This document shows, piece by piece, positions 2,871 through 60,609 of a stretch of DNA of 64,000 nt (position 1 is its first letter; the number at the start of each line of letters is the position of its first letter). The position numbers and the translations under genes are program-made. The stretch lies in assembly GCF_030684315.1 (NCBI RefSeq), contig NC_081361.1, positions 41,337,045-41,401,044 of the forward strand, in the 5' to 3' direction. The notes under the pieces are model-generated. The model saw nothing but the letters and a program-made list of their open reading frames with translations, was not told the origin of the DNA and did not search any database. Source of the stretch: Stegostoma tigrinum. Lineage: Eukaryota.

Positions 2871-3034
2871 GCATCAGAGAAGCAGGAAAGTTTGACGTTT
2901 TGGGTCGTGACCCTTCTTCAACCCGAAACGTCAAACTTTCCTGCTCCTTTGATGCTGCTTGCCTGTTGTGTTCATCCAGCTTCACAGCTGTTATCTCAGG
3001 TTCTCCAGCATCAGCAGTTCCTACTATCTCTGTA
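2871..3034 (+). mobile_element. Mini Penelope pLTR/hammerhead fold-back insertion (family 1)
   Basis: An inverted hammerhead fragment (2871-2920) precedes a forward GAAACGTC...tail (2921-3030). TSD ACAATRATAAATGGCAT at 2858-2874 and 3035-3051. Confidence 0.85.
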
Positions 3035-3168
3035 ACAATGATAAATGGCATTGAATTGAAATTGATTTAAGCATTCAAAGTACTACATTAATATCACAAT
3101 TCAGCAACCCCCTACTTTAATTACTGTAAATCAAAAATATTGCTGAAAGCTACAAACTTTGATTTTGA

Positions 3169-3299
3169 GATAGCGATAATAGGAACTGCAGATGCTGGAG
3201 AATCCTAAATAACAAAGTGTGGAGCTGGATGAACACAGCAGGCCAAGCAGTTGCTTGGCCTGCTGTGTTCATCCAGCTCCACACTTGGTTATCTTTTAC
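3169..3299 (-). mobile_element. Mini Penelope pLTR fold-back (family 1)
   Basis: Tail plus 41-bp arms 3209-3249 / 3252-3292 (1 mismatch, 2-nt loop). TTGATTTTGA is duplicated at 3159-3168 and 3300-3309. Confidence 0.85.
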
Positions 3300-6099
3300 T
3301 TGATTTTGATTCATCTACACAAAATGTAGATAGATGACAAAAACAATTAACATGTAAAGCATTTTCCGCATGAAACATGAATTATCCCTATCGACCCAAA
3401 TAGTGGGCCTATGAAATCAAAATTACAACATTAGGCTATGAATTATTATCTGCAGTAAGACAAAGAACATATTATTGCACTTTATACAGTGCCAGTATAC
3501 TCTACACTGATCCTGTGATGTTCAGAAAAAAAAAGGAAGGAATGCTTCCAAGATATGTATAAATGGTTTGCTTACATTTTCAGAATAAAAACAGGCATCC
3601 CACAAAAGACAATAAAGTTCAAAGTTGATAAAAAAGTGGAGAGTTTCAATCATGGTAAGATCTGAAACTAATGGTAAAATATAAGTTTTTGTTCCAACTA
3701 ACACTAATGCGCACACCGTATAAAAATTGTGCCCACTTAGAACAGGATGTGTGCTTACATAAAAAAAACTTCTAGGGATAGTTTACAATTAAGTTTCGTT
3801 TCCTCATCAATTCCTATTCATCTTTCTCTAGTGTCATTTCATTTTGTCAGCTGTTAGATTTCTACCTCTACCCAAATGATTGGTTCTTTAATCAAGACTT
3901 AAATTTTCATATCTGGCATCACTTCCAGGCACATCTTTTGCACTTGTAGCTTCTAGTTCTACAAATTACAGTAGTCCTGAAATGACTCGCATACATTATC
4001 ATTTAATCATATAAACATTTAACATTCCTGAATCAGATTTCCCAATTACTTGAAACCTTAAGTCCTGGGATCAAATCGTGTTGCTCTTATCTGAATATTG
4101 TTATGACCCCAGACCAGGCTAAGCATTTTGTTATGATCCCACATGAGATCATATTACATTATGATCTGGTTAGGGACTAATAACCTCGTAAAAAGTGAGT
4201 TCCAGGAGACTCAAGAAAATAGTGCCACAAAATTCCATGGTTTTGATCATAGAAGAATGAGTTAGAACAGTAATACAATTTGCAGTTAATATGCAATGTA
4301 TTTCTAACACCCAGAATTAACATGTAATAAACACAGATAATATACTGTGATCAAATACCCGACAGTAGAGAGCAAATGTGATCAAGACAGATGCCAACGA
4401 TTTCTCAGGAACTCCTTCCAAACACACATGACACAATGGGTCATCAAATCTTGTTAAACTTCGTGAGTTTACAAGTCTTCAATTTTATCAATCCACCTTT
4501 GAAACTCCCTCCAAAGAACAGTTCTGCCTGTCTCAACAACAGTTCCAGTTCTACTTCATCACCTTTCTTTCCTGGGTTTATGCTTCCGTGGATTCTGAAA
4601 ACTGCACTCCAGCACTTATTCACAGGCACAACTCCAGTGGGTCCTGAGGAATTTTTTGGATTTACCTTGTCCACAAGATCCACAGCTATTCCTTCAAGAC
4701 TATTCCCTCTAAGCTGCTGATTTCCCAGATTCTCTTCTGGCCTCCATGTTAGTTGATATTGTACAGTTCTTGGGCTTCAGGTGTTGACCCTTTCTCTTTC
4801 AAATTTGTTGTCAATACTCCTGTAAATAAACAATTTCTTGATCTCTCCATCTTTGCCAACAACCATCCCATATCCAAATTCCTTCTCTTTTCTAATGTAA
4901 CATACTTTAAAATTCTCTAACACAAATTAAACATGAGGAATGAGAACACCCGCTACACAAAATTAAGTTTGAGGTCAGAGGGATTGCTTGCCAATAATTA
5001 TCAATTGCTGCAATGAAAATCCTTGTTGTGTTGACACTTCCAAATACATTACCATTCTTGAACTTATTTGTTCATGGGACATGAAAACTACTAGCTAGCT
5101 AGTCTGTATTGTTCATCTCAACTGCTAGGTGGTGGTAAGCTGCCTTTTCGAAACACTGCGAACCTAGGTGCAGAGACACACACAATGCTGTGAAAAAAGG
5201 AATTCGGGATTTTGAACCAGTGATAGTTAGGGAACAAAGATATAGTTCTAAATAAGAATGATGCTTGGTTGGAGGAGTATATAAAGGTGGTGGTGCTCTC
5301 ATTCATCTACTGCCCTTGTCCTCTTCGATGGTAGTGATCATAGGTACGGAACGAGCCTGGAGGAGTTACGACAGTGCATCTTATACATGGTATACACTAC
5401 TGCCACCATACATCAGTGGTGAAAGGAATGGATATTGGATGCCAATCAACCACGTTATTTTGTCCTGGATGGTGTCAAGCTTGAACGTTGTTGGACTTGC
5501 ATTCAGCCAGGACAGTGGAGAGTCTGCGTCACAAACCTGCCATGCCCTGTAGACGACAGAATTCCTAGTCTCTGACCTGCTCTTGTAGACACTGTATTTA
5601 GAAAGCTGGTCCAGTTTAGTTTTTGCTAAACAGTAACACCAGAATGTTCCTAATGAGAAATTCAGTAATGGTGATGGGCTTGCATATCAAAAGGTGATGG
5701 TTACATACGTGTTGGTGATGGTCTTTTCCTGCCATTTTTATGGTGCAAATATTACTTGCCACTAAAATATTCCAAGTCTAGATGCTGTACAAGTCTTGCT
5801 ACATTTAGCTATAAATTGTAGTTACAAACATAGCCATTTTAATTTCTCCAATCATAGTTCCACCCCAACCATAGTACCAAAATGGCTCTTATCAACGTCA
5901 CAAATGGCATCTTAGGTAATGTTGATGAAGGAAAACTTTCCCTCCTCACCCTTCTTGACTGTGGCATTTAACATAGCTGACCACACCAACTCCCTCCAGC
6001 TGCTCCACATTATCAACCAGAAGGGAGGGATTACTCTCACATGGTTCCAATTCTACACAGCTAATCATAACCAGAAAAATCACTTGCAATGGTTTCTTG

Positions 6100-6220
6100 G
6101 ATAGTAGGAACTGCAGATGCTGGAGAATCTGAGATAACAAGGTGTACAGCTGGATGAACACTGCAGGCCAAGCAGAATCAGAGGAGCAGGAAAGCTGACA
6201 TTTTGGGCCTTGACCTTTCT
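6100..6220 (-). mobile_element. Mini Penelope pLTR fragment (family 1) inserted in an L2-like LINE
   Basis: Tail-to-hammerhead segment homologous to 58258-58380; it ends in stem II. Confidence 0.8.
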
Positions 6221-6912
6221 TTTCCTATTCTCACACTATTACCCCCAGAGATCCCCAAGATTCAATCCTTGGTCCCCTGCTATTTCTGATCTACATGCTT
6301 CCCCTTAGTGACAACACAAATACACCTTGTTTTCACATGCACACTAATGAAAACTGGCCCTATATTACCACCATCTCAATTGACTCTTCCACCAGCATTA
6401 AATTATTAACTGCTATCCAATACCCAATAACAAATGACAAAAATTTCTTCCAGTTAAATACTGGGAGTAATATTGCTCTTTGCTCCTTGCTCCAAACTTG
6501 TGTCCCTAACTACAAGCTCCAGCATTCTCCCTTGCAAATTAAACCAGTCTTTTCCCACCTTTAATGTCACATTTGATCAAAGATCATTTCCAAGATTGCT
6601 TGTTGGTATCTCAATAAGTGGCTTCACTCATTTTTAACTCACCTGCTAATGAAACCTTCATCCATGCTTTTGCTAACTAAAATTGTATATTCTAAAGTAC
6701 TCCCAGCTGGTCTTCCACATTCTATCCTGCGGCCAGCCACCTAACACACAATAAGTACAGTTTCCCCTTTCACCAATATGCTCACTAGCTTACACTGACT
6801 CCTGGGAAAGCAGTAGCCTAATTTTACAATTCTCATTCTTTTCAAAATCTCTCAAAACTTTGCTCCCCACATCTCTGTAATCTCCTCCAACCCCACACCT
6901 TCAAATATAATC

Positions 6913-9685
6913 AGACGATAAGATATGGAGCAGAATTAGGCCATTCAGCCCATTGGGTCTACTCCAGCATATGATAATGCCTGACGTGCTTCTCAATGCC
7001 ATTCTCCTGTTTTCTTTCCACAAACTTTGATCCCCTTATTAATTAAGAACCTATCCCGGTCTTAAAGACATTCAATGACTTGGTCTCCACAGATGTCTGT
7101 GACAATGGGTTTCACAAATTCATCACCCTCTGACTGAAGAAATTCCTCAGTTTTAAAGGACTGTCTCTTCTACCAGTGTAATGATCTTTTCCATGTCCAG
7201 TTGATCTAGGCCTCTCAGTATTTTGTAAGTTTCAATGAGGTCTCCCTCCTCATCCTTCTGAACTTGATTATAGACCTAGCCACTCCTCATGACAAGCCTT
7301 TCATCCCTGGGATCATCCTTGTAAGCCTCCTCTGGAGTCCCTCCAAGCCAGCAAATCCTTCCATGGAACAGGGCCCAAACTGTTTACAATATTCCATAAG
7401 CGGTCTGACCACGTGGCTTTTCATAACCTCAGCAGCACATTCCTACTCTTGGATTCTAGCCCACTCAATGAATGCTAACATTGCATTTGCATTTCTAACT
7501 GCCAAGTGAATCTACATGTTAACCTTAAAAGAATTTAAAGTAGGACCCCTAAGGCCTCTAGTGCTTCAAATTTCCAAAGCTTTTCTCAATTAGAAAATAA
7601 TCTACATCTCTACTCCTCTTACTGAAGTGCATGACCTCAGCCACTTCTTCACTCACTCACCTAGCTTGTTCTTCTGTAGCCTCCCCAGCTCCTCAACACT
7701 ACCTGTCCCTTTCTACTTGTATTATCTGCAAATAGAGTAAATGTCCTCAGTTCCTTCATCCAGTTCGTTAACGTACAACACAAATAGTTGTGACCCCAAT
7801 ACTGACCCTTGCAGAACTCCACTAGTCACCAGCTGCTATCCTGGAAAAAAGAACTTTTTATCCCCACTCCTTGCCTTCTGCCAGTTAGCCAATCCTCTAA
7901 CTATGCCAGTATCTTGTCCCCAACACCATGGGCTCTTAAACTTATTTAGCAGCCTCCTGTGCAGCACCTTGTCAAATGCCTTCTAGAAGTCTAAATAGAT
8001 CACATCCATCAGCTCTCCTTTGTCTAAGATGCTTAATACCTTCTTAAATAATTCTAACAGATTTGTCAGGTATGACCCCTCCTTGAAGCCACGCTGACTC
8101 AGCCCTACTTTATCATGCACTTCCAAATATTCTGCAATTTCATCCTTAATAATGGACTCTAAATTCTAAGGTCAGGCTAACAGGACAGTAATTTCCCATC
8201 TTCTGCCTCCCTCCCTTTTTAAACAAGGGTGTTATGTTAGCCATTTTTCAGTCCTCTGGGACCCTCCAGAGATTCCTGAAAGATCAGCACCAATACCTCC
8301 ACAATCTCCTCAGCTATCTCCTTCAGAACCCTGGGGTATAGTCCAGCCAGTCTGGGTGATTTATCCACCTTCAAACTTATCAACTTGGCCAGCATCTTCT
8401 CCTCAGTGATGGCCACTACACTCTCCTCTGTTCCAACTCTCGAAGTTCTGATATGTTACTGGCGTTGTTCACCTTGAACACTGATGCAAAGTACCTATTC
8501 AGTTCCTCTAACTTTTCTTTGTTCCTTATTATTCCTTATTACTTCTTCAGCCTCATTTTCCAGTGATCTAATGTCCACTCTTGCCTCTTTCTTCTCTTGC
8601 TACTACTGTTCCACTGTCTTGCCTGCTAGACTCATCTTCCAACCCTTTCTGGCCATCATGTCTTTTTGTTGTTACTTTTACCCAATTGTTATTCCATTAA
8701 TCGGATTCTAGCTTTTCCCTCTCAAACTACAGAGTGTATTCTATTACACTGTGGTCACTGCTCCCAGGGTTCCTTCACTTTAAGCTCTTTAATCGAGTCT
8801 GCCTTGTCACACATAAAATCCATAACTGTCTGTTCCCTAGTGGGATCTACCACAAACTATCTCATAAATGCTCCATGAATTACCTTTCATGGGATCCATT
8901 ACCAACCTGATTTTCCTAGTCTACCTGAATACTGAAGACCCCATGATATTTGCAACAGTACCTTGCTAATTTATTTTCTGTCCCTCATCTTGCTGACTGC
9001 TTGGACACCTGTACATAACTCCAATTAGAATTTTTTTTAAAAATTGTGGTTCCTCAATTCTACCCACACAGATTCTATGCCTTCTGGCCCAATATCACTT
9101 CTTGCTATCAATTTAATTTCACCTCCTACTAACAAGGCAACCCTAGTCCCCTCTGCCTGTCCTTTTGATAAGATGTGTATTCTTGGATATTTAGTTCCCA
9201 GCTGTGATCCCCTTACAACCATGTCCTTGTGATACCCACAACATACCCACTAATTTCAATCTGTGCTACAAACCATTTACTTTGTTTCATACACTGCGCA
9301 CATTTAAGTGCAACACCTTCAATCCTGCCTTAATCACCCCTCTTCTCATAGGTTAACCTGCCCACCCACCCCCATCTGCTGTGCCTGACATTAGATTCCT
9401 GACTCTCTCAATATCCTTTGTACTTGTTCAGGAAACTTTAATAACTTTTCCTTCTAGAAATCAACCTCATCATCAACCAGCAATTCCTACATTCTCCTTT
9501 ACCTTCAATTTTATAGTCTTCAAATGTAACTGAACCTACTCCTCTACTATTTAAAGCCCTAGTTATGGGATTTTCTAGGACTCTGGTCTCAGCACGATTC
9601 AAGTGGAAGCTATCCCAACGGAACAGCACCCTCCTTCCCAGTATTGGTGTTAGTGGTCCCATTAATTCAAACATCTTTTTCCACA
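6913..9685 (-). mobile_element. Decayed long CR1 LINE (ORF1 esterase remnant, endonuclease, RT, 3' end)
   Basis: Minus-strand remnants GRRVLFRWDSFHLN (ORF1 SGNH-like), GIESVWVELRN (APE endonuclease), DF*KAFDKV and VTSGVLQGSVLG (RT). Confidence 0.78.
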
Positions 9686-9698
9686 CATCTGCACTCCT

Positions 9699-9826
9699 GA
9701 TTTCTGAAGAAGGGTCTAGGTCTGAAACGTCAAACTTTCCTGCTCCTCTGATGCTGCTTGGCCTGCTGTGTTCATCCAGCTGTACACCTTATCTCAGATT
9801 CTCCAGCATCTGCAGTCCCTACTATC
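9699..9826 (+). mobile_element. Mini Penelope element with complete hammerhead core (family 1)
   Basis: UUU-CUGAAGA-AGGGUCUAGGUCU-GAAACGUC^AAA (core 9704-9731) followed by the pLTR end and tail. 11-bp TSD TCTGCACTCCT at 9688-9698 and 9827-9837. Confidence 0.87.
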
Positions 9827-11231: not shown

Positions 11232-11254
11232 AAAACTGAAAAAGAAGGGAAATT

Positions 11255-15740: not shown

Positions 15741-15932
15741 CTGAAACAGAAGTTGCTGATGAAATTCAGCAGGTTTCTGTGGGAAGAAAGCAGAGTTAAC
15801 GTTTCAAGTCCAGTGTTCAGAAGTTCTGATAAGTTCTAATGAAGAGTCACTGGATCTGAAACATTAAATCTACCTTGTTCCCACAGATGCTGCCAGAGCT
15901 GCTGAATTTTGCCAGCGATTGTTATTGTTTTT
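15741..15932. mobile_element. Mini Penelope fold-back (family 2); its tail (about 15141-15168) is separated from it by a CR1 insertion
   Basis: Inverted arms meet at TTCAGAAG/TTCTAATGAAGAGTCACTGGATCTGAAAC; homologous to 54860-55050. Confidence 0.7.
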
Positions 15933-18872: not shown

Positions 18873-19015
18873 GTCAGAAATCACACCTGAGTGTTACTCA
18901 GAAAAAATGAGGCTCCGAAAGCTTGTGTTTTCGAATAAACCTGTTGGACTATAACTTGGGGTCGTGTGATTTCTGACCTTGTCCATCCCTGTCCCAAAAC
19001 CGGCACCTCCACATC
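18873..19015 (+). mobile_element. Mini Penelope pLTR fragment (family 3)
   Basis: GCTCC-GAAAGCTT-GTG (3' half of a hammerhead, AGCU palindrome) plus AATAAACCTGTTGGACT, with a short inverted 5' piece GTCAGAAATCACAC. Homologous to 33205-33322. Confidence 0.65.
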
Positions 19016-19369: not shown

Positions 19370-19439
19370 GTAAGAGATTTGCAGAGTATTTATGCGTATG
19401 TAAGGTTTTAGATATTCAGAATAATTCTATGGAAAAGGT

Positions 19440-25444: not shown

Positions 25445-26204
25445 TATTTTGTTTTCTGAGTGTTCAAGCCCATTCATGCCAATTTATGGTCACTTAATGC
25501 TGTGAACATGTGCCAGTATAAAACTTAGTTCAAAATTATATAACTGCTTAAGGGTCATTGTAAAGTGTTTCTATTACACCCATCGTCTCCAGCTCTAATC
25601 TCAATGTCCTCAGAAAAAAGGCAAGTTTGTTTGCTGGATATAATTTATATCCTATTTTGAAGTTTAAGTAGAAGAAAAGACATTGACACACATCTACAAA
25701 GATTTGAAATGTCGAGGATGCATGCTGGCTTGTATTCTTACTGGCTTCTTATTTATTCTGATCAATAGGTTTCTTGCTTTCCTGTTCATTGATGAAACCT
25801 GGTGAGTTTGCTTTTCTTAAATAGTGGTTACAGCCATTTTAAACTGGTCATATTTCATGCTTGTGATGACCTGTGGAAAAGTGGGTTGTGATTTGCAGTG
25901 CACTGTTTTCCACCCGTGGTCATGACAAGAACGAAATTGATGCTTTTGTTTTGACAGCCTTGTTGATATTTGTATCAATAATTAGTTAATAATTAATCAT
26001 GACAATCCTGTGTTTGTGCTGTTGGACGTCCTTTTACATCTGCTTTTAATTTGTACATAAACTCAATTCATGCATTCCAACTACAGTCAATAAATTATAT
26101 ATTTTGCAGGTTTTAGTCTAGTTATAGAAGCATTGAAACTAGAAACAGAAGTAGAACATTGGGTGCCTCATGGTCATGGCTGATCCTATATCTCAATACT
26201 ATAT

Positions 26205-26414
26205 GTTTCAGAGATAGTAGGAACTGCAGATGCTGGAGAATCTAAGATAACAAGGTGTAGAGCTGGACGAACACAGCAGGCCAAGCAGCATCAGAGGAGC
26301 AGGAAAGCTGGTGTTTCAGGCCTAGAGAAAGGTCCAGGCCCGAAACGTCAATTTTCCTGCTCCTCTGATGCTGCTTGACATGTTGTGTTCATCCAGCTCT
26401 ACACCATGTTATCT
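26205..26414 (-). mobile_element. Mini Penelope fold-back (family 1) inserted in a CR1 3' end
   Basis: Tail plus about 82-bp inverted arms meeting in hammerhead stem II. TSD TATCTCAATRCTATAT at 26189-26204 and 26410-26425. Confidence 0.87.
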
Positions 26415-29400
26415 CAATGCTATATTCCCACTTTCTCCTCCTACCACTGATCCTTTGATATCCAATAATGTATCTATTTCTTTCTTGAATATATTCTGTG
26501 ATTTGGTGTCCACAGCCTTCTGTACCCTTTTGATTGAAAAATGCTTTCCTCATCTTGGTCCTTAATGGCCTAACCCATATCCGAGACTGTGACATCGGGT
26601 TTTAAGCTCCCCAGCCACAGAAAAAGCTACGGGGAGAATGCAGGTAAGTGGAGTTGAAATGCCCATCAGCCATGATTAAATGGTGGAGTGGACTCGATGG
26701 GCCAAATGGTCTTACTTCCATTCCTATGTCTTATGGTCTAAAAAACATCCTCCGAGCGTCTAGTTTATTGAGACTTGTTATGAAACACATATTTTTGCAT
26801 TAAGTGACCACATTCATATTTGAATAGCATCCTTTCTGCCCCAGGTATCTTCACCAATGCCGTTTGTGCCTTTCAGTTTGATTGCTACTCAAGGAATCTT
26901 CTTACTTGCCCTCCTGTATGTCTGTAGCTTTTTAAAAAAATTGATTTTTACAGATTTTAATCTAATATCAAATACAACAAACTTAAGTAATGTTAATGCC
27001 ATGCACATTTAAAGCTGCTTTTCTTATTCTCTTACTTCAAAATTATAATGTTGATATAATGCATGCATTGGAAGAGTTTCCAGAAGATAAGATGTGCAGT
27101 TGAGCCACTGACTTTAAACACAAATTGCCTCTTTGTCCATTGAATATACACATATGGAGAATTTAAAAGAAAATTGATCGATTTCTAATTTGGCAGAGAG
27201 TGAAGATGGGGTCCTAGGACAGGTTATAAAATGCAGACTAATAGAAGGTTTTTGCATTTGTCAGATGAAGTGAAATTGCTTCTTTGAAACAAGAGTGTTT
27301 AGCAATATTATTAAAATGGAAGACCAAGTTTATGTATGTGGAACAAATCAAAATCTGTCTTAACATTTAATAAGATCTTTACCTTTTTTATGTTTCTTTC
27401 AGCGTCACTTGTCTCTCCAAAGCTACTGAAGTAGTATCAGCTGTGAGAGCTGTATAGGAGTGAGGATAGTTGCGAACTGGCACATACATATTGAGAGAAA
27501 TTCCTCTGCAATTCGCCTTTTCTGTTTAGTAATATGGGATTGAGTGTAGGTTCCACTTATAGGATAAATTGATATGTGTCATTTCAACTTTAATTAACAG
27601 TATAGTTAATATGCATGCAGCACAAATAAATAATCATTTTCTGATTATATCTCTTATTCCAGACATAAGACCTGAATAATTAAGAAAAATATTCGTCAAA
27701 AGGATTAAGATACCAGTGTCACAAAGAGAATTCAAACATTTGATAAACAAATAAATTGCTCAATGGGTTATTCAAACTAGAATGTCTGCATTGATCTTAA
27801 TCAGGTCACAGTTGAAATGTTACAAATCCAAAAATCAGGCTGTGATTGGCTCATTTACTCCACTCCTCCCTCTCTGTCTACCTTCCTCCCTTCTCTACAA
27901 AGTAGAACGGATTACAAATTGGCAGCCCATTTTGAAATCTGTCCCAATTTTTACTTCCATTAAAGTGAATGAAAATAAAAGTGGAGACGTGTAAAATGAG
28001 CTGCCTTTTCGTGATCATTGATTTTCCACTTGGGCGCAGATAGAGACTTATCTGAAATGTGTGTCATCAAGTGAAGTAGGACGTTAAGACTAAGACTGTT
28101 TAAAGAAAGGCTGTGAGTGAGGTGGCAGAGATGTGCTCATGTTCTTTGAACTTTTGTACCAAAGCAAAATTCACTAACATCAGATGGAAGGACGAATTTG
28201 ACAAAAATACTGGTGTATGTGAACCGAGAACCGCAGTTCTATGACTCAGGTATCAGATGATAGTTATCCTTAATGGTTTATAGTTTGCAATCAGCTTGAA
28301 TAGCATGAAAAACAACTGATTTTGTACAAAATCCTTTAGTTGTAATAGAAAGTGTGTTCATTAACAGGAATCCAAATTGATTGGAAAGTTACCTTTATGC
28401 CAATTAGAATTAAAAGCAAGTATGACTGGTGCATAAATAAAGAACTATTTTCAGAGGTTCAGAAGCAAAACATTGGAGGCTGCCAGGTAGTTTTGGCACA
28501 AGAACCAAAGCTGAAAAATAATAATGTTTAATCAGTTATCTGTTTATTCCCTGTTTTGTTATAATAAAGCCTATCGAAGATGAGAGACATTTTGTATAAA
28601 TACAGACCGAGTTGGAACTTCCATTCAATGTTGAACTGGCAAAAAAGGGTCTTATTTTCCAGTGATGGCCTGACCTCAAAGCTCTGTACATCTGTTTATC
28701 TGCTTAGGCATGGGTAAATGTAAAATCCGCATGTTTTTACAAGTGTGCACCTCCAGAACTGCTGATAAGTGCACATGCTTTTACTTCTGCATGCCTAATC
28801 AGCTCTAGTCTGGATACAAGCTGGTGATCTTTGCAGCGTAGCACCAACTGCAATAGAATGCATGAAAGCTAGCTCAAAATAATACATGCAACAGAACAAC
28901 CAAGCTCCATAAATTTTGCTTCTCTAAAACTAACAATTACTAGAAGGACTTTGATCAGAAATATAACTTTCCAACATATCCTGACTATACCTCCAAGTTT
29001 AGCTCCTGAAAGACACTAAAGCTGATCAAAAAAGACATGACTAGACTTATTCTGCAGGTGTAAGCCTCATAGATGCTGCACCTAGCCACTGGAGAATACA
29101 GGCCCCACCAGCCCAAAAAGAAGTGTCACAGAATTATCATGGTGAAGTAGGCAGCCATTCAGTCTTTCATGTCTGCACCAGCTCTACATTCTAGAGTGGC
29201 TCTATAATCTAGTACCAATTTCCTACCTTTTCCTGATATCCCTGCCTACCATTACTATCCCCAAAAAAACCAATGCCTTCTTTAATGCCTTAAATGAACC
29301 TGCTTCCCACATTTCCAGACAGTACATTCCAGACCATAACAACTTGCTGGGTTTTGTTCTCATATCACATTTGCTTCACTTGCACATAATTTGAAATCTC

Positions 29401-33186: not shown

Positions 33187-33365
33187 ATGTTCAGATGAAG
33201 TCAGGCAAAGGAGCAGTGCTCAAAAAGCTTGTGATTTCAAATAAACCTGTTGGACTGTAACCTGTTGTCGTGTGACTTCTGACTTTGTCCACCCCAGTCC
33301 AGCACTGATACCTCTACATCATTGCTTCCTCTCCACAGATGCTGCCAGTCCTACTGAGTTTTCCT
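33187..33365 (+). mobile_element. Penelope pLTR fragments: family 3 (about 33205-33322) adjoining or nested in family 2
   Basis: AAGGAGCAGTGCTCAAAAGCTTGTG...AATAAACCTGTTGGACT, followed by CTCTCCACAGATGCTGCCAG (family 2). Confidence 0.6.
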
Positions 33366-36941: not shown

Positions 36942-37105
36942 AGCAGAAATAAATTGCTGGCAAAATTTAGTTCTGATGAAGAGTCATCGGACTTGCTTGA
37001 AATGTTAACTCTGCTTTCTCCCCACGATCCTTCCAGATCATGAGTGTCGTAAACCATTTCTGTTTTTATTTCAGATGTCCATCATTCACAGTTTTGTTTT
37101 GTTTT
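36942..37105 (+). mobile_element. Mini Penelope element (family 2) with hammerhead, inside a CR1 fragment
   Basis: GUU-CUGAUGA-A-GAGUC(AUCG)GACUU...GAAAUGUU-AAC at 36970-37009, plus a short inverted 5' piece. Confidence 0.7.
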
Positions 37106-40382: not shown

Positions 40383-40802
<420 letters not shown>

Positions 40803-42481: not shown

Positions 42482-45454
42482 AAGGATACATAAGAAACAA
42501 ACGAGAGGCAAAAGTAGACATTGGGCCGCTCCAAATTGATGCTGAAAAGGCTTGTGATGGGAGATAAGGAAGTAGCTGAAGAACTTAACAAGTACTTTGC
42601 ATCAGTCTTCACAGTGGAAGACATGAGTAATATCCCAACAATTAAGGAGACTCCGGGGCAGAGTTGGGTATAGTAGGCATTACAAAAGAGAAAGTGCTAG
42701 AAAAACTAAAAGACCTAAAAACTGATTGATCTCCTGGCCCCGATGGGCTACATCCTAGAGTTCTGAGGAAGGTGGCTGAGGAAATAGTGGAGGCATTGGT
42801 TGTGATCTTTCAAAAGTCATTGGAGTCAGGAAAAGCCCCAGATGATTGGAAAATCGCTGTTGTAACCTCCTTGTTTAAGAAAGGATCAAGACAAAAGATG
42901 GAAAATTATAGGCCGATTAGCCTAACGTCGGTTGTTGATAAAATTCTAGAATCCATCGATAAGGCTGAGATTTCTAAATTCTTGGGAGCGCAGAGTCGGA
43001 TTAGAATAAATCAGCATGGATTTAGTAAGGGGAGGTCGTGCCTGATAAACCTGTTCGAATTCTTTGAAGAGGTAACAAGTAGGTTAGACAAGGTAAACCC
43101 AATGGATGTTATCTATCTAGACTTCCAAAAGGCCTTTGATAAGGTGCCTCACAGGAGGCTGCTGAGTAAGGTGAGGGTCCATGGTGTTCGAGGTGAGCTA
43201 CTGGCATAGATTGAGGATTGGCTGTCTGACAGAAGGCAGAGAGTTGGGATAAAAGGCTCTTTTTTGGAATGGCGACTGGTGACAAGTGGTGTCCCACAGG
43301 GCTCAGTGTTGGGGCTGCAGTTGTTCACTTTATATATTAATGATCTGGATGAAGGGACTGGGGGAATTCTGGTGAATTTTGCCAATGATACGAAGTTAGG
43401 TGGACAGGCAGGTAGTACTGAGGATGTAAGGAGGCTGCAGAAAAATTCAGACAGTTTAGGAGAGTGGTTCAGGAAATGGCTGATGAAATTCAACGTATAT
43501 GGATTTCAGCAAGGCGTCCGATAAGGTTCCCCACAGTAGGCTATTGTACAAAATGCGGAGGAATGGAATTGTGGGAGATATAGCAGTTTGGATCGGAAAT
43601 TGGCTTGCTGAAAGAAGACAGAGGGTGGTAGTTGATGGGAAATGTTCATCCTGGAGACCAGTTACTAGTGGTGTACCCCAAAGGTCGGTGTTGGGTCCAC
43701 TGCTGTTTGCCATTTTTATAAATGACCTGGATGAGGGCGTAGAAGGATGGGTTAGTAAATTTGCAGACGACACTAAGGTCGGTGGAGTTGTGGATAGTGA
43801 CGAAGGATGCTGTAGGTTGCAGAGAGACATAGATAAGCTGCAGAGCTGGGCTGAGAGGTGGCAAATGGAGTTTAATGCAGACAAGTGTGAGGTGATGCAC
43901 TTTGGTAGGAGTAACCGGAAGGCAAAGTACAGGGCTAATGGTAAGATTCTTAGCAGAGAGATCTTGGTGTCCATGTACACAGATCCTTGAAAGTTGCCAC
44001 CCAGGTTGACAGGGCTGTTAAGAAGACCATACAGTGTTTTAGCTTTTATTAATAGAGGATTCGAGTTCCGGAACCAAGAGGTTATGGTGAAGCTGTACAA
44101 AACTCTGGTGCGGCCGCACTTGGAGTATTGTGTACAGTTCTGGTCACCGCATTATAAGAAGGATGTGGAAGCTTTGGAAAGGGTGCAGAGGAGATTTACT
44201 AGGATGTTGCCTGGTATGGAGGGAAGGTGAAACGAGGAAAGGCTGAGGGACTTGAGGCTTTAGAGAGAATAAGGTTGAGAGGTGACTTAATTGAAACATA
44301 TAAAATAATCAGAGGGTTAGATAGGGTGGAGAGGGAGAGCCTGTTTCCTAGGATGGTGACGGCGAGCACGAGGGGGCATAGCTTTAAATTGAGGGGTGAA
44401 AGATGTAGGACAGATGTCAGAGGTAGTTTCTTTACTCAGAGAGTAGTAAGGGATTGGAACGCTTTGCTTGCAACGGTAGTAGATTCGCCAACTTTAGGTA
44501 CATTTAAGTCGTCATTGGATAAGCATATGGATGTACATGGAATAGTGTAGGTTAGATGGGCTTGAGATCGGTATGACAGGTCAGCACAACATCGAGGGCT
44601 AAAGGGCCTGTACTGTGCTGTAATGTTCTATGTTCTATGTGAGCAAATGCGAGGTCTTGCACTTTGGAAAAATGAATTCAGGCATGGACTATTTTATAAA
44701 TGGTGAGAAAATTCATAAAGCCGAAGTACAAAGGGATCTGGGAGTGCTAGTCCACAATTCTGTAAAGGTTAACTTGCAGGTTGCGTCCATGATTAAGTTT
44801 GCGAATGTAATGTTGTCATTTATCTCAAGAGGGTTGGAATTTAAAAGCAGCGATATGCTTCTGAGACTTTATAAACTCTAGTTAGGCCATATTTAGAATA
44901 CTGTGTCCTATTTTGGGCCCCACACCTCAGGAAGGACACACTGGCATTGGAGCGTGTCCGGCGGAGATTCACACGGATGATCCCTGGAATGGTAGCTTTA
45001 ATGTATGATGAACGGCTGAGGATCCTGGGATTGTATTCGTTAGAGTTTAGAAGGTTGAGGGGAGATCGAATAGAAACTTACAAGATAATGCATGGCTTAG
45101 AAAGGGTGGAAGCTGGGAAGTTGTTTCCATTAGGTGGGGAGACTAGGACCTGTGGGCACAGCCTTAGAATTAGAGGGGGTAAATTTGAATGGAAATGAGG
45201 AGACATTTCTTCAGCCAGAGAGTGGTGGGCCTGTCGAATTCACTGCCACGGAGCGCAGTGGAGGCCAGGACGTTAAATGTCTTCAAGGCAGAGATTGAGA
45301 AATTCTTGATCTCGCAAGGAATTAAGGGCTACGGGGAGAGTGCGGGTAAGTGGAGTTGAAATGCCCATTGGCCATGATTGAATGGTGGAGTGGACTCGAT
45401 AGGCCGAGTGGCCTTACTTCCACTTATGGAAGTATGGCGTCTTATGGTCTTATG
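42482..45454 (+). mobile_element. CR1 LINE (host; 42482-43496 and 44641-45454) in CDCP2 intron
   Basis: NYRPISLTSVV, YLDFQKAFDKVPH, VTSGVPQGSVLG and FANDTKLGG motifs; the frame resumes after the insert (MKFNV|SKCEVLHFG). (TATGGTCT)n tail. Confidence 0.92.
43497..44640 (+). mobile_element. Younger CR1 (second family) nested in the host CR1
   Basis: MDFSKASDKVPH...FADDTKVGG...LVRPHLEYCVQFWSP; (ATGTTCT)n tail. Confidence 0.92.
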
Positions 45455-47029: not shown

Positions 47030-48850
47030 AAGACAAGAAATAGAAGCAGGAGTAGGCATTTCAGCCTGTCAAGCTTGACCCACCATTCAAGATCATGGTT
47101 GATCTGTCCCAGGCCTTAACTCCTCTTTACTGTAAACTTATCAGGGCCCTTAACTGCCTGATATTTTCAAAACTCTGTCTTCCTTCTCTTCACATAGTTA
47201 CAGTGATCTAGACTCCACAGATCAGAATTCCCTCCTCAAGAAATTTCTTTGCATCTCAGTTTTAAATTAGTATCTCCTTATTCTATCATTATGTTCTCCA
47301 GTATAAGATACCCTCACTGCTGGAAACACATTTTTTCAATATCTATCTTGTTAAGCTGTCAAGAATCTTTTATGTTTCAGTAATATCACCTCTCAATCTT
47401 TTAAATTCCAATAAATAAAAGTTTAACCCACTTAGCCAGACTTGACAAGTCAACCCCTTCATCACAGGAATCAGCCTAGTGAATCTTTATGAACTGCCCC
47501 CAGTACTGATATATGGGGAACAAACTGTACACAGCACTCCAGGGTGCAGCCTCACCAACACACTGTACAGTTGTAATACGACTTCTCTATTTTAAACTCC
47601 ACACCTTTAGCAATAAAGGGTAAAATTCCATTCGTCTTCTTAATTACTTGCTGTACCTGCACGCTAAGGTTTTGTGTTTCATGTCAAGAACACCCAGATT
47701 TTTCTGTGATGCACACTTTTGGAGTCTATCTCCATTCCCATTTCTGGTTGCAGCAGCAGCGGGAGCTTGGAGCAGGAGCCTGTCGGGAAGCCAGTGAGTC
47801 ACGGTTTTTGAAAATCGGTGTCCATGTACACAGATCCGTGAAAGTTGCCACCCAGGTTGACAGGGCTATTAAGAAGGCATACAGTGTTTTAGCTTTTATT
47901 AATAGAGGATTCGAGTTCCGGAACCAAGAGGTTATGGTGAAGCTGTACAAAACTCTGGTGCGGCCGCACTTGAAGTATTGTGTACAGTTCTGGTCACCGC
48001 ATTATAAGAAGGATGTGGAAGCTTTGGAAAGGGTGCAGTGGAGATTTACTAGGATGTTGCCTGGTATGGAGGGAAGGTCATACAAGGAAAGGCTGAGGGG
48101 CTTGAGGCTGTTTTCATTAGAGAGAAGAAGGTTGAGAGGTGACTTAATTGAAACATATAAAATAATCAGAGGGTTAGATAGGGTGGATAGGGAGAGCCTT
48201 TTTCCTAGGATGGTGACGGCGAGCATGAGGGGGCATAGCTTTAAATTGAGGGGTGAAAGATATAGGACAGATGTCAGAGGTAATTTCTTTACTCAGAGAG
48301 TAGTAAGGGAATGGAACGCTTTTCCTGCAACGATAGTAGATTCGCCAACTTTAGGTATATTTAAGTCGTCATTGGACAAGCATATGGACGTACATGGAAT
48401 AGTGTAGGACAAGATGGGCTTGAGATCGGTATGACAGGTCGGCACAACATCGAGGGCCGAAGGGCCTATACTGTGCTGTAATGTTCTATGTTCTATGTAA
48501 GTAATAGTCTGCCTTTTGATCTTTCTGTCAAAATGCATGACCTCACACCTTTCTCCTCTAAACTCCATCTGCCAAGTTTTTTTTACCAGTCATTAAACAT
48601 ATAAATTCCTCATGTCTCCATCATAAAATGCCCTGTCAGCTATTTTGTTTCATCATCAAATTTAGATTCATTAGACTCTTTCCCTCCTCTGTCATTAATT
48701 TGTTAGTAATTAATTGAGGCCCTAGGGTTCATGCTGGTGGGACTATTTATGTTTTACCAACTTGAAAGACATGCATTAATCCTACCCCTGTTGCTTCTGT
48801 GTTAAACCAATCCCCAATCCATGCTAATACATTATACCTAATATATCACC
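47030..48850 (-). mobile_element. Old CR1 fragment interrupted by a younger CR1
   Basis: CR1 3' end at about 47030; minus-strand RT remnants resume after 48498 (MEFRGERCEVMHFD). Confidence 0.7.
47745..48498 (+). mobile_element. Young CR1 3' fragment (same family as 43497-44640) with an extra CpG-rich 5' segment
   Basis: Near-identical to 43966-44640, open frame to TAG 48407, (ATGTTCT)n tail. Confidence 0.9.
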
Positions 48851-54854: not shown

Positions 54855-55062
54855 CAAAGAACCAAAAAAAACTGCAGATACTGAAAATCAAAAACAGAAG
54901 TTGCTGGAAAAACTTAGTGATCTGGCAGCATCTGTGGAGAGAAATCAGAGTTAATGTTTCAGGTCCAGTGACCTTTCTTCAGAACAGTTGTTTCTGTCCA
55001 CAGATGCTGCTAGACCTGCTGAGTTTTTCCAGCAATTTCTGTTTTTATTCTTAATTTTCTTC
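54855..55062 (-). mobile_element. Mini Penelope fold-back (family 2) with hammerhead at 54950-54985
   Basis: Minus strand GUU-CUGAAGA-A-AGGUC(ACUG)GACCU-GAAACAUU-AAC; inverted arm 54991-55047. ACYAACTTGAA is duplicated at 54844-54854 and 55063-55073. Confidence 0.8.
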
Positions 55063-56220
55063 ACTAACTTGAAAGTACCCTTGTGGCAGAAACTTATAAT
55101 CACAGTTCTGGTCCACAAATGCAAATAGTTTCTGACACAAGGACCACAAAATTCTTTTTTGGCTTTCATGACGCTGGATTTTTGTTTGAAATGCATTCTT
55201 AGCTTCTTAGTTTAACTCTTAATTTCTTACAAGTAAATCCCATCTTCAATGTCTCCACTGTATTGCTAAACAAGTCTTTAGTTGTTGACTATGATTCTCT
55301 AGATAAACATAGGCTAGCTTTCATAAAATTTGCAAACATGTTCAAAGCATAAAAGTACTCTCCCTGTCTGGTTCCTCTATGAAAAGGAACAGCAATTAAA
55401 AACACAGCCATTCTATAGCCAACAGGCAAGGATAGAAAGGAGAAATGACGTTGATTTCGCTAGCAATTAGTATGTTAAAGCATTTTTATGCAAACATGAA
55501 TAATATTAGAAATTAAGTTGATGGAGTTACTGCTCTAAGCATCATTAGAGAATTTAAATATTGAATATTTTTAAAATGTGGCTAAACATTGATGACTGAC
55601 AAGGAAAAAGAGATAAGCTTCACAGCACAATCAAGGGTAACAAAAGTAATGATTAGAACAGTTTAGAGAACAATGGGAAAGAAAATTAATGATAATTACA
55701 GAAGTAATGATAAACGTTTTTCAAGACTATGAAGGCCTTGGTGGGATTACTGAAAGACACTTCAGGACAGATTGGAGTGGAATTTCAGGCGTGGAAAAGA
55801 TGTTCAATGACTATTTTACATCAGTCCAAATTCCTCTAGATGTCCAACAACTAGATGTGACTTGCACTGTAAAATGAATATTGGTAGTTTTACAATAGAG
55901 AGGAAGATGTCTCAAAACAAAGCATCTTAAATAAATGATCTGAGCACTGATTTGTAATCACCTTGTCTTTACCTTTAACTGCTTGTTGAATTCTGGGATC
56001 ATACACTTAGTATGGAAAGTTGCTCATGTGGTCGTGGTGCTGATTTTCATACGGTGTAGTAAATCAAACTCAAGAAACGCCAGGCTCATTAACCTGGTAT
56101 GGATTAGAAATTATTTCCATTCACATAGGTGGAAAATTGTAGTTAATGTCTATAAATCTACTTGGAGGTTGTTATCAGTGGTGTCCTCCATGAATCACTT
56201 TTTAATATCTTTATGAATGT

Positions 56221-57026
56221 TGTTATTACCACGAGGGGAAAATGAACTGTTTTGCTTTAGTTCCACTATTCCACAGATCACAACATAATTGTTTTACCTG
56301 GGTCCCAACACAGTCCAGTTCCCTTCTGGAGTTTTAAAATAAAAAGATCCATCAACCAGGTTCCTTTGATGAGCACAAATTTATTTATTTGTTATAAACA
56401 AAATTGTTCAATGATGATGCAAAACTGGTTTAACAAATTTAATTTGGAATACGAAAATATAAATGTTTACCCCTCTAAGTAACCTAAATAAACACTCATG
56501 CCTACGCTGAATGAAGAGAAAATAAAAAAGGATCTCTCGCTGTAGTTTGGGGAGAAAACATTTTTGGTGAATTTGTTTTAGTCCTTGAAGGCAGAAAGAG
56601 GATAAGACATGGAATGTTCAGATGTGGCTGTCACGCTGACATTTTGGCATACAGAGATGAATGTCATTAAACACAAGCAGATGTCTAGGATCTTTGCTGA
56701 TACATCTTGTCCAGGAAACACAATACTGAGGATTCCATGAAGGTAATCCGTTTCAAACCAGACTAAGGGTCCAGTTACCACAATGGATGCAGAAGAGATT
56801 CTTCAAAATCAGGAGAAGTGGGCCAGGAATCTTCTTTTCTTTCCTCAGGTTGGCCACCAATTTGCAACCTGACAGTCATAAACCCAGGCAGCAGGTCTGC
56901 AGAATGTTTGTTTTAAAAGAAAAGTTCTAATGTCCTTTCACTGACCATTTTTTAAAAAAAAGCCAAGTATCCAGTATCATTTAAAATCAAGACCACAATA
57001 ATTATTAATATGAATTCACCATAACA
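56221..57026. mobile_element. Solo LTR (806 bp) inserted in an old CR1
   Basis: Inverted termini TGTTAT...ATAACA with an exact 4-bp TSD ATGT (56217-56220 and 57027-57030). Confidence 0.75.
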
Positions 57027-58351
57027 ATGTCTTCTGTGTAAATGTGCAAATTTTCATAAGGCCCACAATTTGTGGATGTCAGAATTCTACAGTAGAACAA
57101 ATTTATGAAAGTTGGGTGATTTAAACCAGAATCTGGCAAACATTCTTTAAAATAGTTAAACATGTATAGTGTAATTGATCAGTATAGAAACCAAGCGTGT
57201 TTTCACAATGCATGATTCCTAATTAAACTCAGTTATGATTGCTCATAACTCTCCAAATCATAATGGCAAGAGCTGAGAAAAAGTAACTGAAGCAAATGGA
57301 ACATTTGGTAGCCTAGATTGAATTATTTAATGTAAAACAACTTGTCCTCTCCTGTCTAAACCGTGTTTGGAATGCTGCAACCAGTTTTGATCACTTTAGT
57401 GGACTATCCAGAAGTTCTGGAAAATTCTGAAGAAGGCTATTACAACTATTTAATTTGAAAGATCAAAGCTATTCTGAAAGATTTGAAAAGGTTGGTCTCT
57501 TCCCTTTATAAATGTACAGGGGATATTTTGAATATAAACAATTATTATATTGTTTGATATTTTTCCTTCCTAGGGACTATTTCAACTAAATAAGTTGGGG
57601 AGGACCACCGGTCATGTATTAAAGTTATGAAAGTGTAGATGTAGGTTAGATACTAGATGGTTCCACCTCTCCCAGAGATGAGTTGACATAGAAACATAAG
57701 ACTTTTGAGTATCAGGCCCTTCAAGCTTTTTCCACCATTCGATAAGATCCTGGGCAGTTGTATGTGGTCTCAATGGGTCGCATCATAAAAGATAGATAAA
57801 ATGTCAAGCACTAATTGGCTAGATGGCCTCTTCCTTCTGTGCTGTAATAATTCTTAGGCTACGTGTCTGATTTATGTGATCTCGTGTGGGTCATCTAAGA
57901 GAAAATTTTCACACTTTTTTCCTGATTGTTCTTGGAAATCTTTTCCCTTTTTTCTTTCCCAGCAGATTATATGAGCACAAGCAGGGGCAAATATATGTTT
58001 GTGAGTGTATGGCTGTCTGTGCAATGCCTATGCTAATGCCAGAGTCTGAGTTGGCTCAATGGAGCTGTTGGTCTTTTCCATTCTGATAATTTAATATGTT
58101 TATGTGTTCACATTTGTCTGCAGTGCCCGGCTTTGGAAAAGTGCCAGATGACAATGCTACTGTTATTTTCATGAGTGCAAAGTAGGCGTGGGTTGCAGCA
58201 AAGCAATTATAATTTGAAGAGAAGGGGTCCACAGTCAGTGACATATTGACATTTGAGATAATGGGAACTGCAGATGCTGGAGATTCCAAGATAATAAAAT
58301 GTGAGGCTGGATGAACACAGCAGGCCAAGCAGCATCTCAGGAGCACAAAAG

Positions 58352-58383
58352 CTGACGTTTCGGGCCTAGACCCTTCATCAGAG
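58352..58383 (-). ncRNA. Minimal hammerhead ribozyme, mirror copy in the left arm
   Basis: Exact reverse complement of 60578-60609. Confidence 0.78.
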
Positions 58384-58605
58384 AGGGGGATGGGGGGAGG
58401 GAACTGGAATAAATAGGGAGAGAGGGGGAGGCGGACCGAAGATGGAGAGTAAAGAAGATAGGTGGAGAGGGTGTAGGTGGGGAGGTAGGGAGGGGATAGG
58501 TCAGTCCAGGGAAGACGGACAGGTCAAGGAGGTGGGATGAGGTTAGTAGGTAGCTGGGGGTGCGGCTTGGGGTGGGAGGAAGGGATGGGTGAGAGGAAGA
58601 ACCGG

Positions 58606-59598
58606 TTAGGGAGGCAGAGACAGGTTGGACTGGTTTTGGGATGCAGTGGGTGGGGGGGAAGAGCTGGGCTGGTTGTGTGGTGCAGTGGGGGGAGGGGATG
58701 AACTGGGCTGGTTTAGGGATGCAGTGGGGGAAGGGGAGATTTTGAAACTGGTGAAGTCCACATTGATACCATATGGCTGCAGGGTTCCCAGGCGGAATAT
58801 GAGTTGCTGTTCCTGCAACCTTCGGGTGGCATCATTGTGGCAGTGCAGGAGGCCCATGATGGACATGTCATCAAGAGAATGGGAGGGGGAGTGGAAATGG
58901 TTTGCGACTGGGAGGTGCAGTTGTTTGTTGCGAACTGAGCGGAGGTGTTCTGCAAAGCGGTCCCCAAGCCTCCGCTTGGTTTCCCCAATGTAGAGGAAGC
59001 CGCACCGGGTACAGTGGATGCAGTATACTACATTGGCAGATGTGCAGGTGAACCTCTGCTTAATGTGGAATGTCATCTTGGGGCCTGGGATGGGGGTGAG
59101 GGAGGAGGTGTGGGGACAAGTGTAGCATTTCCTGCGGTTGCAGGGGAAGGTGCCGGGTGTGGTGGGGTTGGAGGGCAGTGTGGAGCGAACAAGGGAGTCA
59201 CGGAGAGAGTGGTCTCTCTGGAAAGCAGACAGGGGTGGGGATGGAAAAATGTCTTGGGTGGTGGGGTCGGATTGTAAATGGCGGAAGTGTCGGAGGATAA
59301 TGCGTTGTATCCGGAGGTTGGTAGGGTGGTGTGTGAGAACGAGGGGGATCCTCTTGGGGCGGTTGTGGCGGGGGCGGGGTGTGAGGGATGTGTCGCGGGA
59401 AATGCGGGAGACGCGGTCAAGGGCATTCTCAATCACCGTGGGGGGGAAGTTGCGGTCCTTAAAGAACTTGGACATCTGGGATGTGCGGGAGTGGAATGTC
59501 TTATCGTGGGAGCAGATGCGGCGGAGGCGGAGGAATTGGGAATAGGGGATGGAATTTTTGCAGGAGGGTGGGTGGGAGGAGGTGTATTCTAGGTAGCT
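58606..59598 (-). CDS. Penelope-like element ORF fragment: RT thumb, Cx4Cx2C linker, GIY-YIG endonuclease (5'-truncated, uninterrupted frame)
   Basis: Open frame of 330 codons: SYLEYTSSHPPSCKNSIPYSQFLRLRRICS (PLE RT C-terminus) ... PCNRRKCYTCPH ... NVVYCIHCTRCGFLYIGETKRRLGDRFAEH ... VANHF ... RRLQEQQLIFRLGTLQPYGIN. The RT palm is missing. Confidence 0.88.
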   Translation of the reverse strand, partial: SYLEYTSSHPPSCKNSIPYSQFLRLRRICSHDKTFHSRTSQMSKFFKDRNFPPTVIENALDRVSRISRDTSLTPRPRHNRPKRIPLVLTHHPTNLRIQRIILRHFRHLQSDPTTQDIFPSPPLSAFQRDHSLRDSLVRSTLPSNPTTPGTFPCNRRKCYTCPHTSSLTPIPGPKMTFHIKQRFTCTSANVVYCIHCTRCGFLYIGETKRRLGDRFAEHLRSVRNKQLHLPVANHFHSPSHSLDDMSIMGLLHCHNDATRRLQEQQLIFRLGTLQPYGINVDFTSFKISPSPTASLNQPSSSPPPTAPHNQPSSSPPPTASQNQSNLSLPP

Positions 59599-59617
59599 CT
59601 AGGTACGCTAGGTAGCC

Positions 59618-60355
59618 CTCGTTCTCACACACCACCCTACCAACCTCCGGATACAACGCATTATCCTCCGACACTTCCGCCATTTACAATCCGACCCCAC
59701 CACCCAAGACATTTTTCCATCCCCACCCCTGTCTGCTTTCCGGAGAGACCACTCTCTCCGTGACTCCCTTGTTCGCTCCACACTGCCCTCCAACCCCACC
59801 ACACCCGGCACCTTCCCCTGCAACCGCAGGAAATGCTACACTTGTCCCCACACCTCCTCCCTCACCCCCATCCCAGGCCCCAAGATGACATTCCACATTA
59901 AGCAGAGGTTCACCTGCACATCTGCCAATGTGGTATACTGCATCCACTGTACCCGGTGCGGCTTTCTCTACATTGGGGAAACCAAGCGGAGGCTTGGGGA
60001 CCGCTTTGCAGAACACCTCCGCTCAGTTCGCAACAAACAACTGCACCTCCCAGTCGCAAACCATTTCCACTCCCCCTCCCATTCTCTTGATGACATGTCC
60101 ATCATGGGCCTCCTGCACTGCCACAATGATGCCACCCGAAGGTTGCAGGAACAGCAACTCATATTCCGCCTGGGAACCCTGCAGCCATATGGTATCAATG
60201 TGGACTTCACCAGTTTCAAAATCTCCCCTTCCCCCACTGCATCCCTAAACCAGCCCAGTTCATCCCCTCCCCCCACTGCACCACACAACCAGCCCAGCTC
60301 TTCCCCCCCACCCACTGCATCCCAAAACCAGTCCAACCTGTCTCTGCCTCCCTAA
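59618..60355 (+). CDS. Inverted duplicate of the Penelope linker + GIY-YIG endonuclease frame
   Basis: Reverse complement of 58606-59343; only 3 substitutions found by eye. Confidence 0.8.
   Translation, partial: LVLTHHPTNLRIQRIILRHFRHLQSDPTTQDIFPSPPLSAFRRDHSLRDSLVRSTLPSNPTTPGTFPCNRRKCYTCPHTSSLTPIPGPKMTFHIKQRFTCTSANVVYCIHCTRCGFLYIGETKRRLGDRFAEHLRSVRNKQLHLPVANHFHSPSHSLDDMSIMGLLHCHNDATRRLQEQQLIFRLGTLQPYGINVDFTSFKISPSPTASLNQPSSSPPPTAPHNQPSSSPPPTASQNQSNLSLPP
60226..60340 (+). repeat. About 39-bp tandem repeat x3 encoding Pro/Ser-rich units at the ORF C-terminus (mirror copy 58621-58735)
   Basis: PSPTASLNQPSSS / PPPTAPHNQPSSS / PPPTASQNQSN. Confidence 0.8.
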
Positions 60356-60577
60356 CCGGTTCTTCCTCTCACCCATCCCTTCCTCCCACCCCAAGCCGCA
60401 CCCCCAGCTACCTACTAACCTCATCCCACCTCCTTGACCTGTCCGTCTTCCCTGGACTGACCTATCCCCTCCCTACCTCCCCACCTACACCCTCTCCACC
60501 TATCTTCTTTACTCTCCATCTTCGGTCCGCCTCCCCCTCTCTCCCTATTTATTCCAGTTCCCTCCCCCCATCCCCCT

Positions 60578-60609
60578 CTCTGATGAAGGGTCTAGGCCCG
60601 AAACGTCAG
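60578..60609 (+). ncRNA. Minimal type I hammerhead ribozyme in the Penelope pLTR
   Basis: CU-CUGAUGA-A-GGGUC(UA)GGCCC-GAA-ACGU-C^AG. The catalytic core and stem II are intact, and a palindromic ACGU replaces helix III. Predicted cleavage is after C60607. Stem I has only about 2 Watson-Crick pairs in this copy. Confidence 0.78.

Follow-up and report, generated by a model that had tools for sequence, protein, structure and literature searches.

Hammerhead motifs at the locus

The stretch analysed here, referred to as the window, comprises 64,000 nucleotides (nt) of Stegostoma tigrinum (NCBI RefSeq assembly GCF_030684315.1, contig NC_081361.1, positions 41,337,045 to 41,401,044) and holds copies of Penelope-like elements (PLEs) that carry a minimal hammerhead ribozyme motif. 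The motif, its PLE context, its family structure, the boundaries of the short copies (stubs) and a family-1 excess of copies at the predicted cut are all observed directly. There are good grounds to regard these copies as minimal type I hammerheads residing in the pseudo-long terminal repeats (pLTRs) of several PLE families and surviving mostly as decaying stubs, with an RNA start 1-7 nt before the ribozyme, a template that is mostly uncut and a small fraction that is cut. The coordinates proposed by a previous sequence-only reading of the window are correct. Its complete motifs amount to two, namely the copy at 60580 (copies being named by the position of C3, from which offsets are also counted) and an identical inverted partner with C3 at 58381 (-), and the features around them are as follows.

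60578..60609, + strand: intact family-1 minimal type I hammerhead, with the full CUGAUGA-A-stem II-GAAA-CGUC
60546..60552, + strand: putative core promoter, a TATA-like box 34 nt upstream of C3
59612..60674, + strand: 5'-truncated copy of a probable Neptune-type PLE, with a GIY-YIG frame at 59612-60355 and a pLTR ending at about +92, without the tail
58249..59600, - strand: inverted head-to-head partner, with a GIY-YIG frame at 58606-59598, C3 at 58381 and a 34-nt tail at about 58255-58288

The two copies (58249-59600, -, and 59612-60674, +) are both 5'-truncated, lie head to head and are identical over 1059 nt. In the 60580 copy, C3 (60580) is followed by the extra A at 60587, stem II at 60588-60599, G12 at 60600 and the tetramer ACGU at 60603-60606; the predicted cut falls after C60607, and helix I has only 2 base pairs (bp; CU/AG). 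The stem II previously drawn as GGGUC/GGCCC at 60588 is present, but it is better drawn as the 4-bp GGGU/GCCC with a CUAG loop.

Parent elements

A full family-1 element was found in another genomic stretch (L141), where a first pLTR (C3 at 4203) is followed by a 1073-amino-acid frame, a second pLTR (C3 at 7815, the two hammerheads lying 3612 nt apart) and an inverted 5' copy. The frame starts at +166 and comprises a reverse transcriptase (RVT_1), a DKG motif, a Cys linker and, C-terminally, a GIY-YIG domain, both Pfam matches (reverse transcriptase and GIY-YIG) scoring below the curated cut-offs. Family 1 has pLTRs, an inverted 5' copy, a tail of 30-40 bp, and reverse transcriptase, linker and GIY-YIG in one frame. 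Endonuclease-bearing (EN+) PLEs of the Neptune clade are described likewise, with a reverse transcriptase with DKG, a CX2-5CxxC linker, a C-terminal GIY-YIG, a partial tandem with pLTR, an inverted 5'-truncated copy and, at one of the ends, a tail of 30-40 bp (Craig et al. 2021, PMC8557442). Family 1 would thus be a Neptune-type PLE, its placement in Neptune as opposed to Nematis being based on the linker and the vertebrate distribution. All 40 scored genomic matches to 60500-60680 are 99-100% identical, therefore family 1 is very young.

Homologues of the GIY-YIG domain also lie about 190-240 nt upstream of motifs of family 2 (45-49% identity) and of families 4-5 (32-40%), the latter two belonging possibly, on this low identity to family 1, to another clade; the link of family 3 to PLEs is weaker, being seen at two loci. 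The motif was held earlier to be a minimal PLE hammerhead kept by separate PLE lineages, and both points are borne out by its position in the pLTRs of L141 and by the upstream GIY-YIG homology of families 2, 4 and 5.

Several side features of these elements deserve mention. In L140 (4549-7943) a full-length family-1 frame has a 5' pLTR that begins within stem II, at +17, and is not preceded by a promoter. Three 39-nt repeats (60224-60340 and 58626-58737) lie at the end of the family-1 frame and encode a Pro/Ser-rich tail after GIY-YIG. U at position N7 (60583; L141:4206) creates an AUG inside the family-1 core and with it a 13-codon upstream frame, which cleavage would remove together with the cap; an AG-ATG at +44 opens a further upstream frame of 27 codons. 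After its cut site, family 2 (54935-54953, -; consensus) shows branch point-like, pyrimidine tract-like and CAG-like sequences and then ATG, resembling a splice acceptor. Families 4 and 5 (L117, L111, L056, L073, L090) have an extra U, a 6-7-bp stem II and no pile-up of short stubs.

Abundance of the motif and state of its core

The genome was sampled by 97 evenly picked 10-kb stretches (0.97 Mb; 23 of 120 picks fell past contig ends). A neutral descriptor gave 110 matches in this sample, compared with 2, 8, 5, 8 and 7 in five dinucleotide shuffles, and a palindromic tetramer is present in 64 of the 110 compared with 0-1 in the shuffles; the motif class is far beyond chance. An Rfam scan returned no hammerhead among nine matches at E<=1, only hairpin-type chance matches.

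The core CUGANGA...GAAA...UH is found in the 60580 copy and in all nine family consensuses, and is lacking in the copies at 2921, 33202 and 36973. An unpaired nucleotide separates positions 9 and 10.1 in 107 of the 110 matches (A 86, U 11, C 5, G 5); the extra A previously proposed for this place holds for families 1-3 and 6, but six of seven family-4 copies and three of four family-5 copies have U. The commonest tetramer is ACGT (62), followed by ACAT (16) and ATGT (13), which are the products of CpG decay of ACGT; within families, CpG loss affects C11.1/G12 and ACGU. Core conservation within families does not exceed that of the flanks, therefore the stubs are not under selection, which would act instead on transposing master elements.

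Extrapolated from the sample, the genome holds about 680,000 copies of families 1 and 1b (all 11 core bases in 81 of 206 sampled), 270,000 of family 2 (20 of 83) and 26,000 of family 3 (1 of 8). One strict pattern finds 65 intact family-3 cores genome-wide. Groups F3b, F5 and F6 are represented by 3-4 copies each.

Boundaries of the copies

Family-1 copies end at +88..+96 or at +124..+130, that is about +92 or +126, and the difference is the 34-nt tail. A head-to-head partner accompanies 46 of 91 family-1 copies, whereas tandem rows number two, a pattern that does not fit a non-LTR retrozyme, which is defined by head-to-tail tandem units each with a hammerhead. At the other side, 34 of 93 copies reach past -100, 5 have their 5' end at -99..-8, 25 have it at -7..+1 and another 24 have it at +2..+55 (binomial p 5e-22 and 1e-9, with paired copies counted separately). 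In contigs of a second organism, unique flanks end at the same stub boundary.

Upstream of this boundary a TATA-like box is found at -34 in family 1, -33 in family 2 and -37..-41 in family 3; the labels follow the usual TATA and initiator consensus sequences. The short copies thus have their first base 1-7 nt ahead of the core and some 30 nt below a TATA-like box, which points to a likely RNA start at this place and to an uncut template. A TATA-type promoter would launch an RNA that opens with the hammerhead in its first ~30 nt. Priming internally at +92 or +126, the reverse transcriptase of the element would run off the 5' end of this RNA, which would yield both the stubs of 95-130 nt and the head-to-head pairs. 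For the anole Poseidon element PAc, run-off copying of uncut RNA primed at two tail sites was found in vitro (Frangieh et al. 2024, PMC11167929), and a putative TATA box and initiator have been reported in a rotifer pLTR (PMC3846280).

The same boundary could owe its position to an endonuclease cut or a structure at the hammerhead edge, or to short non-autonomous masters, rather than to a transcription start, which I consider unlikely, though not remotely so. The 5' strand of helix I occupies -1..-4, within the pile-up. The pLTR of a PLE is recognised by the endonuclease that the element itself encodes (PMC11167929), and the promoter of Penelope in D. virilis is TATA-less and internal, transcription beginning some 120 nt ahead of the motif (PMC2377424, PMC4209133). 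Family 3, however, shares its 4-bp helix I with family 2 and yet its stubs start about 4 nt further up (at -9..-6 rather than -6..-1). They thereby track a TCACT initiator-like motif and the family's own TATA-like box, itself displaced upstream by 4-7 nt.

Excess of copies at the predicted cut

The first base after the predicted cut is +28. Genome-wide family-1 matches preceded by three non-element bases were counted, giving 469, 3158, 407 and 492 starts at +27, +28, +29 and +30, respectively. Among the first 100 listed +28 starts, counted by eye, 65 are perfect head-to-head palindromes sharing AGCT and 10 show another microhomology; perfect head-to-head junctions number 727 at the cut-site palindrome, while two equally long palindromes used as controls have 53 and 24. 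This family-1 peak may record cleavage in cells: cDNAs from cut RNA would end in the self-complementary AGCT and anneal into perfect palindromes. Taken with the stub boundaries, family-1 RNA is likely to be copied uncut as a rule and cut in cells occasionally. In its strongest form, this reading takes the genome as a fossil record of both RNA states, with stubs at a TATA-driven cap site for the uncut and thousands at the scissile bond for the cut, so that a ribozyme with only 2 bp in helix I and an inhibitory hairpin would be cleaving in the germ line, the element's protein being its most likely switch; I would place the chance of that full account a little below even.

Alternatively, the motif is genuine by descent, but the +28 excess is an artefact of reverse-transcriptase stalling and microhomology, the family-1 ribozyme not cutting in cells. 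The enzyme would copy a U-run, melt two pairs of the inactive hairpin (C3 region/CGUCAG) and stop, and the AGCT ends would then anneal; I consider this account possible, but less likely than not. The minimum-free-energy fold of the family-1 monomer indeed places the core in an inactive hairpin, paired with +24..+29, helix I has but 2 bp, microhomology marks three quarters of the listed +28 starts, family 2 lacks a clean peak, and a stop two pairs into the hairpin after the U-run would give the same +28 position. Conversely, stalling at the base of the hairpin should raise the count at +30, and no such rise is seen (492). Junctions are 14- and 30-fold fewer at the control palindromes, which lie at distances of 4 and 26 nt, and the peak at the predicted scissile bond spans a single base.

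A number of observations speak against RNA starts and cleavage as read here. Families 4 and 5 possess an AT-rich box but show no stub pile-up (17 and 7 copies), and family 1 lacks an A at the proposed start. Setting aside microhomology (three quarters of the first 100 listed +28 starts), the remaining starts (about 790, extrapolated) are under twice those of neighbouring positions, and in the unbiased sample one of 93 copies starts at +27..+29. Family 2 starts number 48, 99 and 19 at +29, +30 and +31, and the 12 inspected +30 loci include 6 internal deletions and 4 microhomology junctions. The active family-1 dimer is predicted to lie 17 kcal/mol above two inactive monomer hairpins (tertiary energy excluded). 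Finally, work on the anole element detected no RNA reads that end at the cut site (PMC11167929), and Naiad PLEs are described as thriving without canonical hammerheads (PMC8557442).

Decayed copies and covariation

Besides the intact pair, the window contains the following copies.

2871..3037, both strands: family-1b head-to-head pair; the core of the minus copy (2871-2921) is broken, C3 and G12 being mutated
6126..6221, - strand: decayed family-1b short copy
9701..9795, + strand: family-1b short copy with intact core, stem II weakened to three G-U pairs and helix I UUU/AAA
11949..12037, + strand: decayed family-1 short copy
15768..15932, both strands: older family-2 head-to-head pair, decayed
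18896..19009, + strand: second AGCU-group copy, without the 5' part of the core
26204..26416, both strands: family-1b head-to-head pair, both members beginning inside the hammerhead
33198..33320, + strand: family-3 (AGCU) copy with broken catalytic core
36970..37040, + strand: copy of an older family-2 subfamily (A10.2-U11.2), broken by a 4-nt insertion before GAAA
54900..55049, both strands: family-2 head-to-head pair; in the minus copy (C3 54982) the stem II closing pair and the tetramer are decayed
63236..63327, - strand: heavily decayed family-2 copy

At 3206-3292 two family-1b 3' ends meet as a palindrome, their junction lying far downstream of the hammerhead, and this pair yields chance microRNA-precursor matches in Rfam. 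Elsewhere, 44028-44646 and 47878-48504 form a duplication about 3.85 kb apart (94-97% identical), probably 3' ends of the long interspersed nuclear element type.

Covariation across three families had been read from five copies, all correctly located; yet of these only the 60580 copy has stayed whole. Three are broken, and decay accounts for the A-U pair at 54974. The stem GGGUC/GACCC at 2902-2913 (-) exists, but C3 is U and G12 is A, and the inverted partner copy occupies the place of the helix I 5' strand. At 33210, GGAGC/GCUC and AGCU are likewise present, but CUGANGA has three mismatches and C11.1 and G12 are lost (33202-33230). GAGUC/GACUU at 36981 represents a real older subfamily with A10.2-U11.2, but in a copy with the 4-nt insertion and the tetramer AUGU. 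The 54982 (-) copy has an intact core and a non-palindromic tetramer, ACAU; its AGGUC/GACCU (54961-54974, minus) does not count as covariation, as A10.1 and U11.1 are unassociated in family 2 (44/25/3/4, Fisher p=0.42), and the pair is the result of two decay mutations, one at a CpG. Replacement of G10.1/C11.1 by A-U was rejected as covariation in family 1 (p=0.14) as well as in family 2 (p=0.42).

Covariation between families is real, in helix I, in ACGU/AGCU and in the G-C/A-U exchange of stem II, but the events are few and part of the set first cited is neutral decay, so that true subfamily covariation was mixed with decay. Helix I pairs as CU/AG, UU/AG, AGUU/AACU, AGUC/GACU, UCAC/GUGA and UCA/UGA in the consensuses, with a 5-bp helix in family 5; UUU/AAA, reported before, is seen at 9704, but the family consensus there has only 2 bp (22 copies). 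Own-family pairing of helix I sums to 29 against a permutation mean of 10.4 over nine groups, a comparison that ignores relatedness and so overstates significance, and to 14 against at most 9 (1 of 24) over four unrelated groups. Genome-wide, the family-2 pair 10.2-11.2 is G-C in 13420, G-U in 1143, A-C in 945 and A-U in 465 copies, with about 80 A-U expected (odds ratio 5.8, by hand); A10.2 shows equally strong linkage to its pairing partner and to two downstream columns that are unpaired, and therefore marks one subfamily event. G10.1-C11.1 with a paired stem II showing compensatory change was found, at one event per subfamily.

A palindromic 15.1-16.1 without helix III occurs in the ACGT set and in the AGCT group. 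Cores without C15.2 have AGCT in 58 of the first 100 listed of 2412 matches (counted by eye), the reversed control giving 398 matches. The AGCU group (L225-L253) includes several subfamilies that differ in stem II and helix I (UCAC, ACAC) and have the downstream flank in common.

Dimers and family specificity

In a double hammerhead, both helix III and helix I are formed between copies. Cleavage would need two copies in one RNA, from the 5' and the 3' pLTR, pairing through helices III and I, probably assisted by the element's protein. The two intact motifs of the window are unable to dimerise in one transcript, because they lie on opposite strands; the two pLTRs of a full element could. By nearest-neighbour energies (the decayed family-2-old representative left out), the active homodimer is above the monomers by 17 kcal/mol in family 1 and by 2-4.5 kcal/mol in families 2, 3 and 5.

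The sequence-only reading further suggested that the ACGU and AGCU palindromes could make dimerisation family-specific; that they evolved to this end, for dimer cleavage between RNAs in trans, appears quite improbable. In its favour, the AGCU group and every ACGU group are mutually orthogonal, both in helix III (2/4 pairs) and in helix I (0-1 bp), and the double change preserves the palindrome. Nonetheless, ACGU is common to seven of the nine groups, and the palindrome alone separates one group. The pairing matrix falls into three classes, namely families 1/1b/2/6, which are cross-compatible (the family-2 5' strand pairs 4 bp with the family-1 3' strand in helix I), the AGCU group, and families 4/5, whose tetramer is ACGU as in family 1 and which are set apart only by helix I (0 bp with family 1). 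Moreover, a 4-bp duplex is too weak for recognition in trans, and full elements carry two copies in cis, therefore orthogonality follows from drift under self-complementarity.

Relation to known systems

The core, the extra nucleotide, the palindrome and the idea of dimer action are already published: Cervera and de la Pena (2014, PMC4209133) described for metazoan PLE pLTRs a minimal core with a nucleotide between 9 and 10.1, a palindrome, family-level covariation and weak cleavage as a dimer. The copies described here resemble theirs in the core, G10.1-C11.1, palindromic 15.2-16.2, short helix I, the unpaired nucleotide, many covarying consensus families per genome, mostly single truncated copies with some opposite-strand pairs, and proposed dimer action of low activity. 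They differ in stem II, which has 4-5 bp in families 1-3 compared with 7-8 bp in Schistosoma, and in number, about 270,000 intact family-1 cores being extrapolated compared with 4,000-9,000 in coelacanth and Xenopus. Stub boundaries, analysed here, are not treated there, and no study of copy boundaries at a PLE hammerhead was found in the literature searched, in which subscription papers are thinly covered.

With anole PAc, family 1 shares a pLTR hammerhead and, on the reading above, two internal reverse-transcription start sites bounding the tail, uncut RNA as the main template, and cleavage that in PAc occurs only with the element protein and is dispensable for insertion (PMC11167929). By contrast, family 1 appears to be Neptune-type, its long frame begins at +166 and not in stem II, and a genomic cut-site excess is seen here. 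Non-LTR retrozymes also carry type I hammerheads in animal repeats tied to PLE pLTRs, and those of vertebrates cut better as dimers (PMC7229834; bioRxiv 10.64898/2026.07.22.740005, the latter survey taking in one chondrichthyan); unlike the stubs, which are single or head-to-head and without promoter, they are head-to-tail tandems with canonical motifs.

The role of PLE hammerheads in cells has been stated to be unclear (PMC8557442). The motif itself is known and ordinary, and the added value of this work is modest, consisting of a controlled genomic signal at the predicted cut and a likely RNA start. Family 1 is nevertheless young, its full-length copies are identical, and it has both a predicted start and a one-base-wide genomic peak at the predicted cut, which makes the cellular role directly testable.

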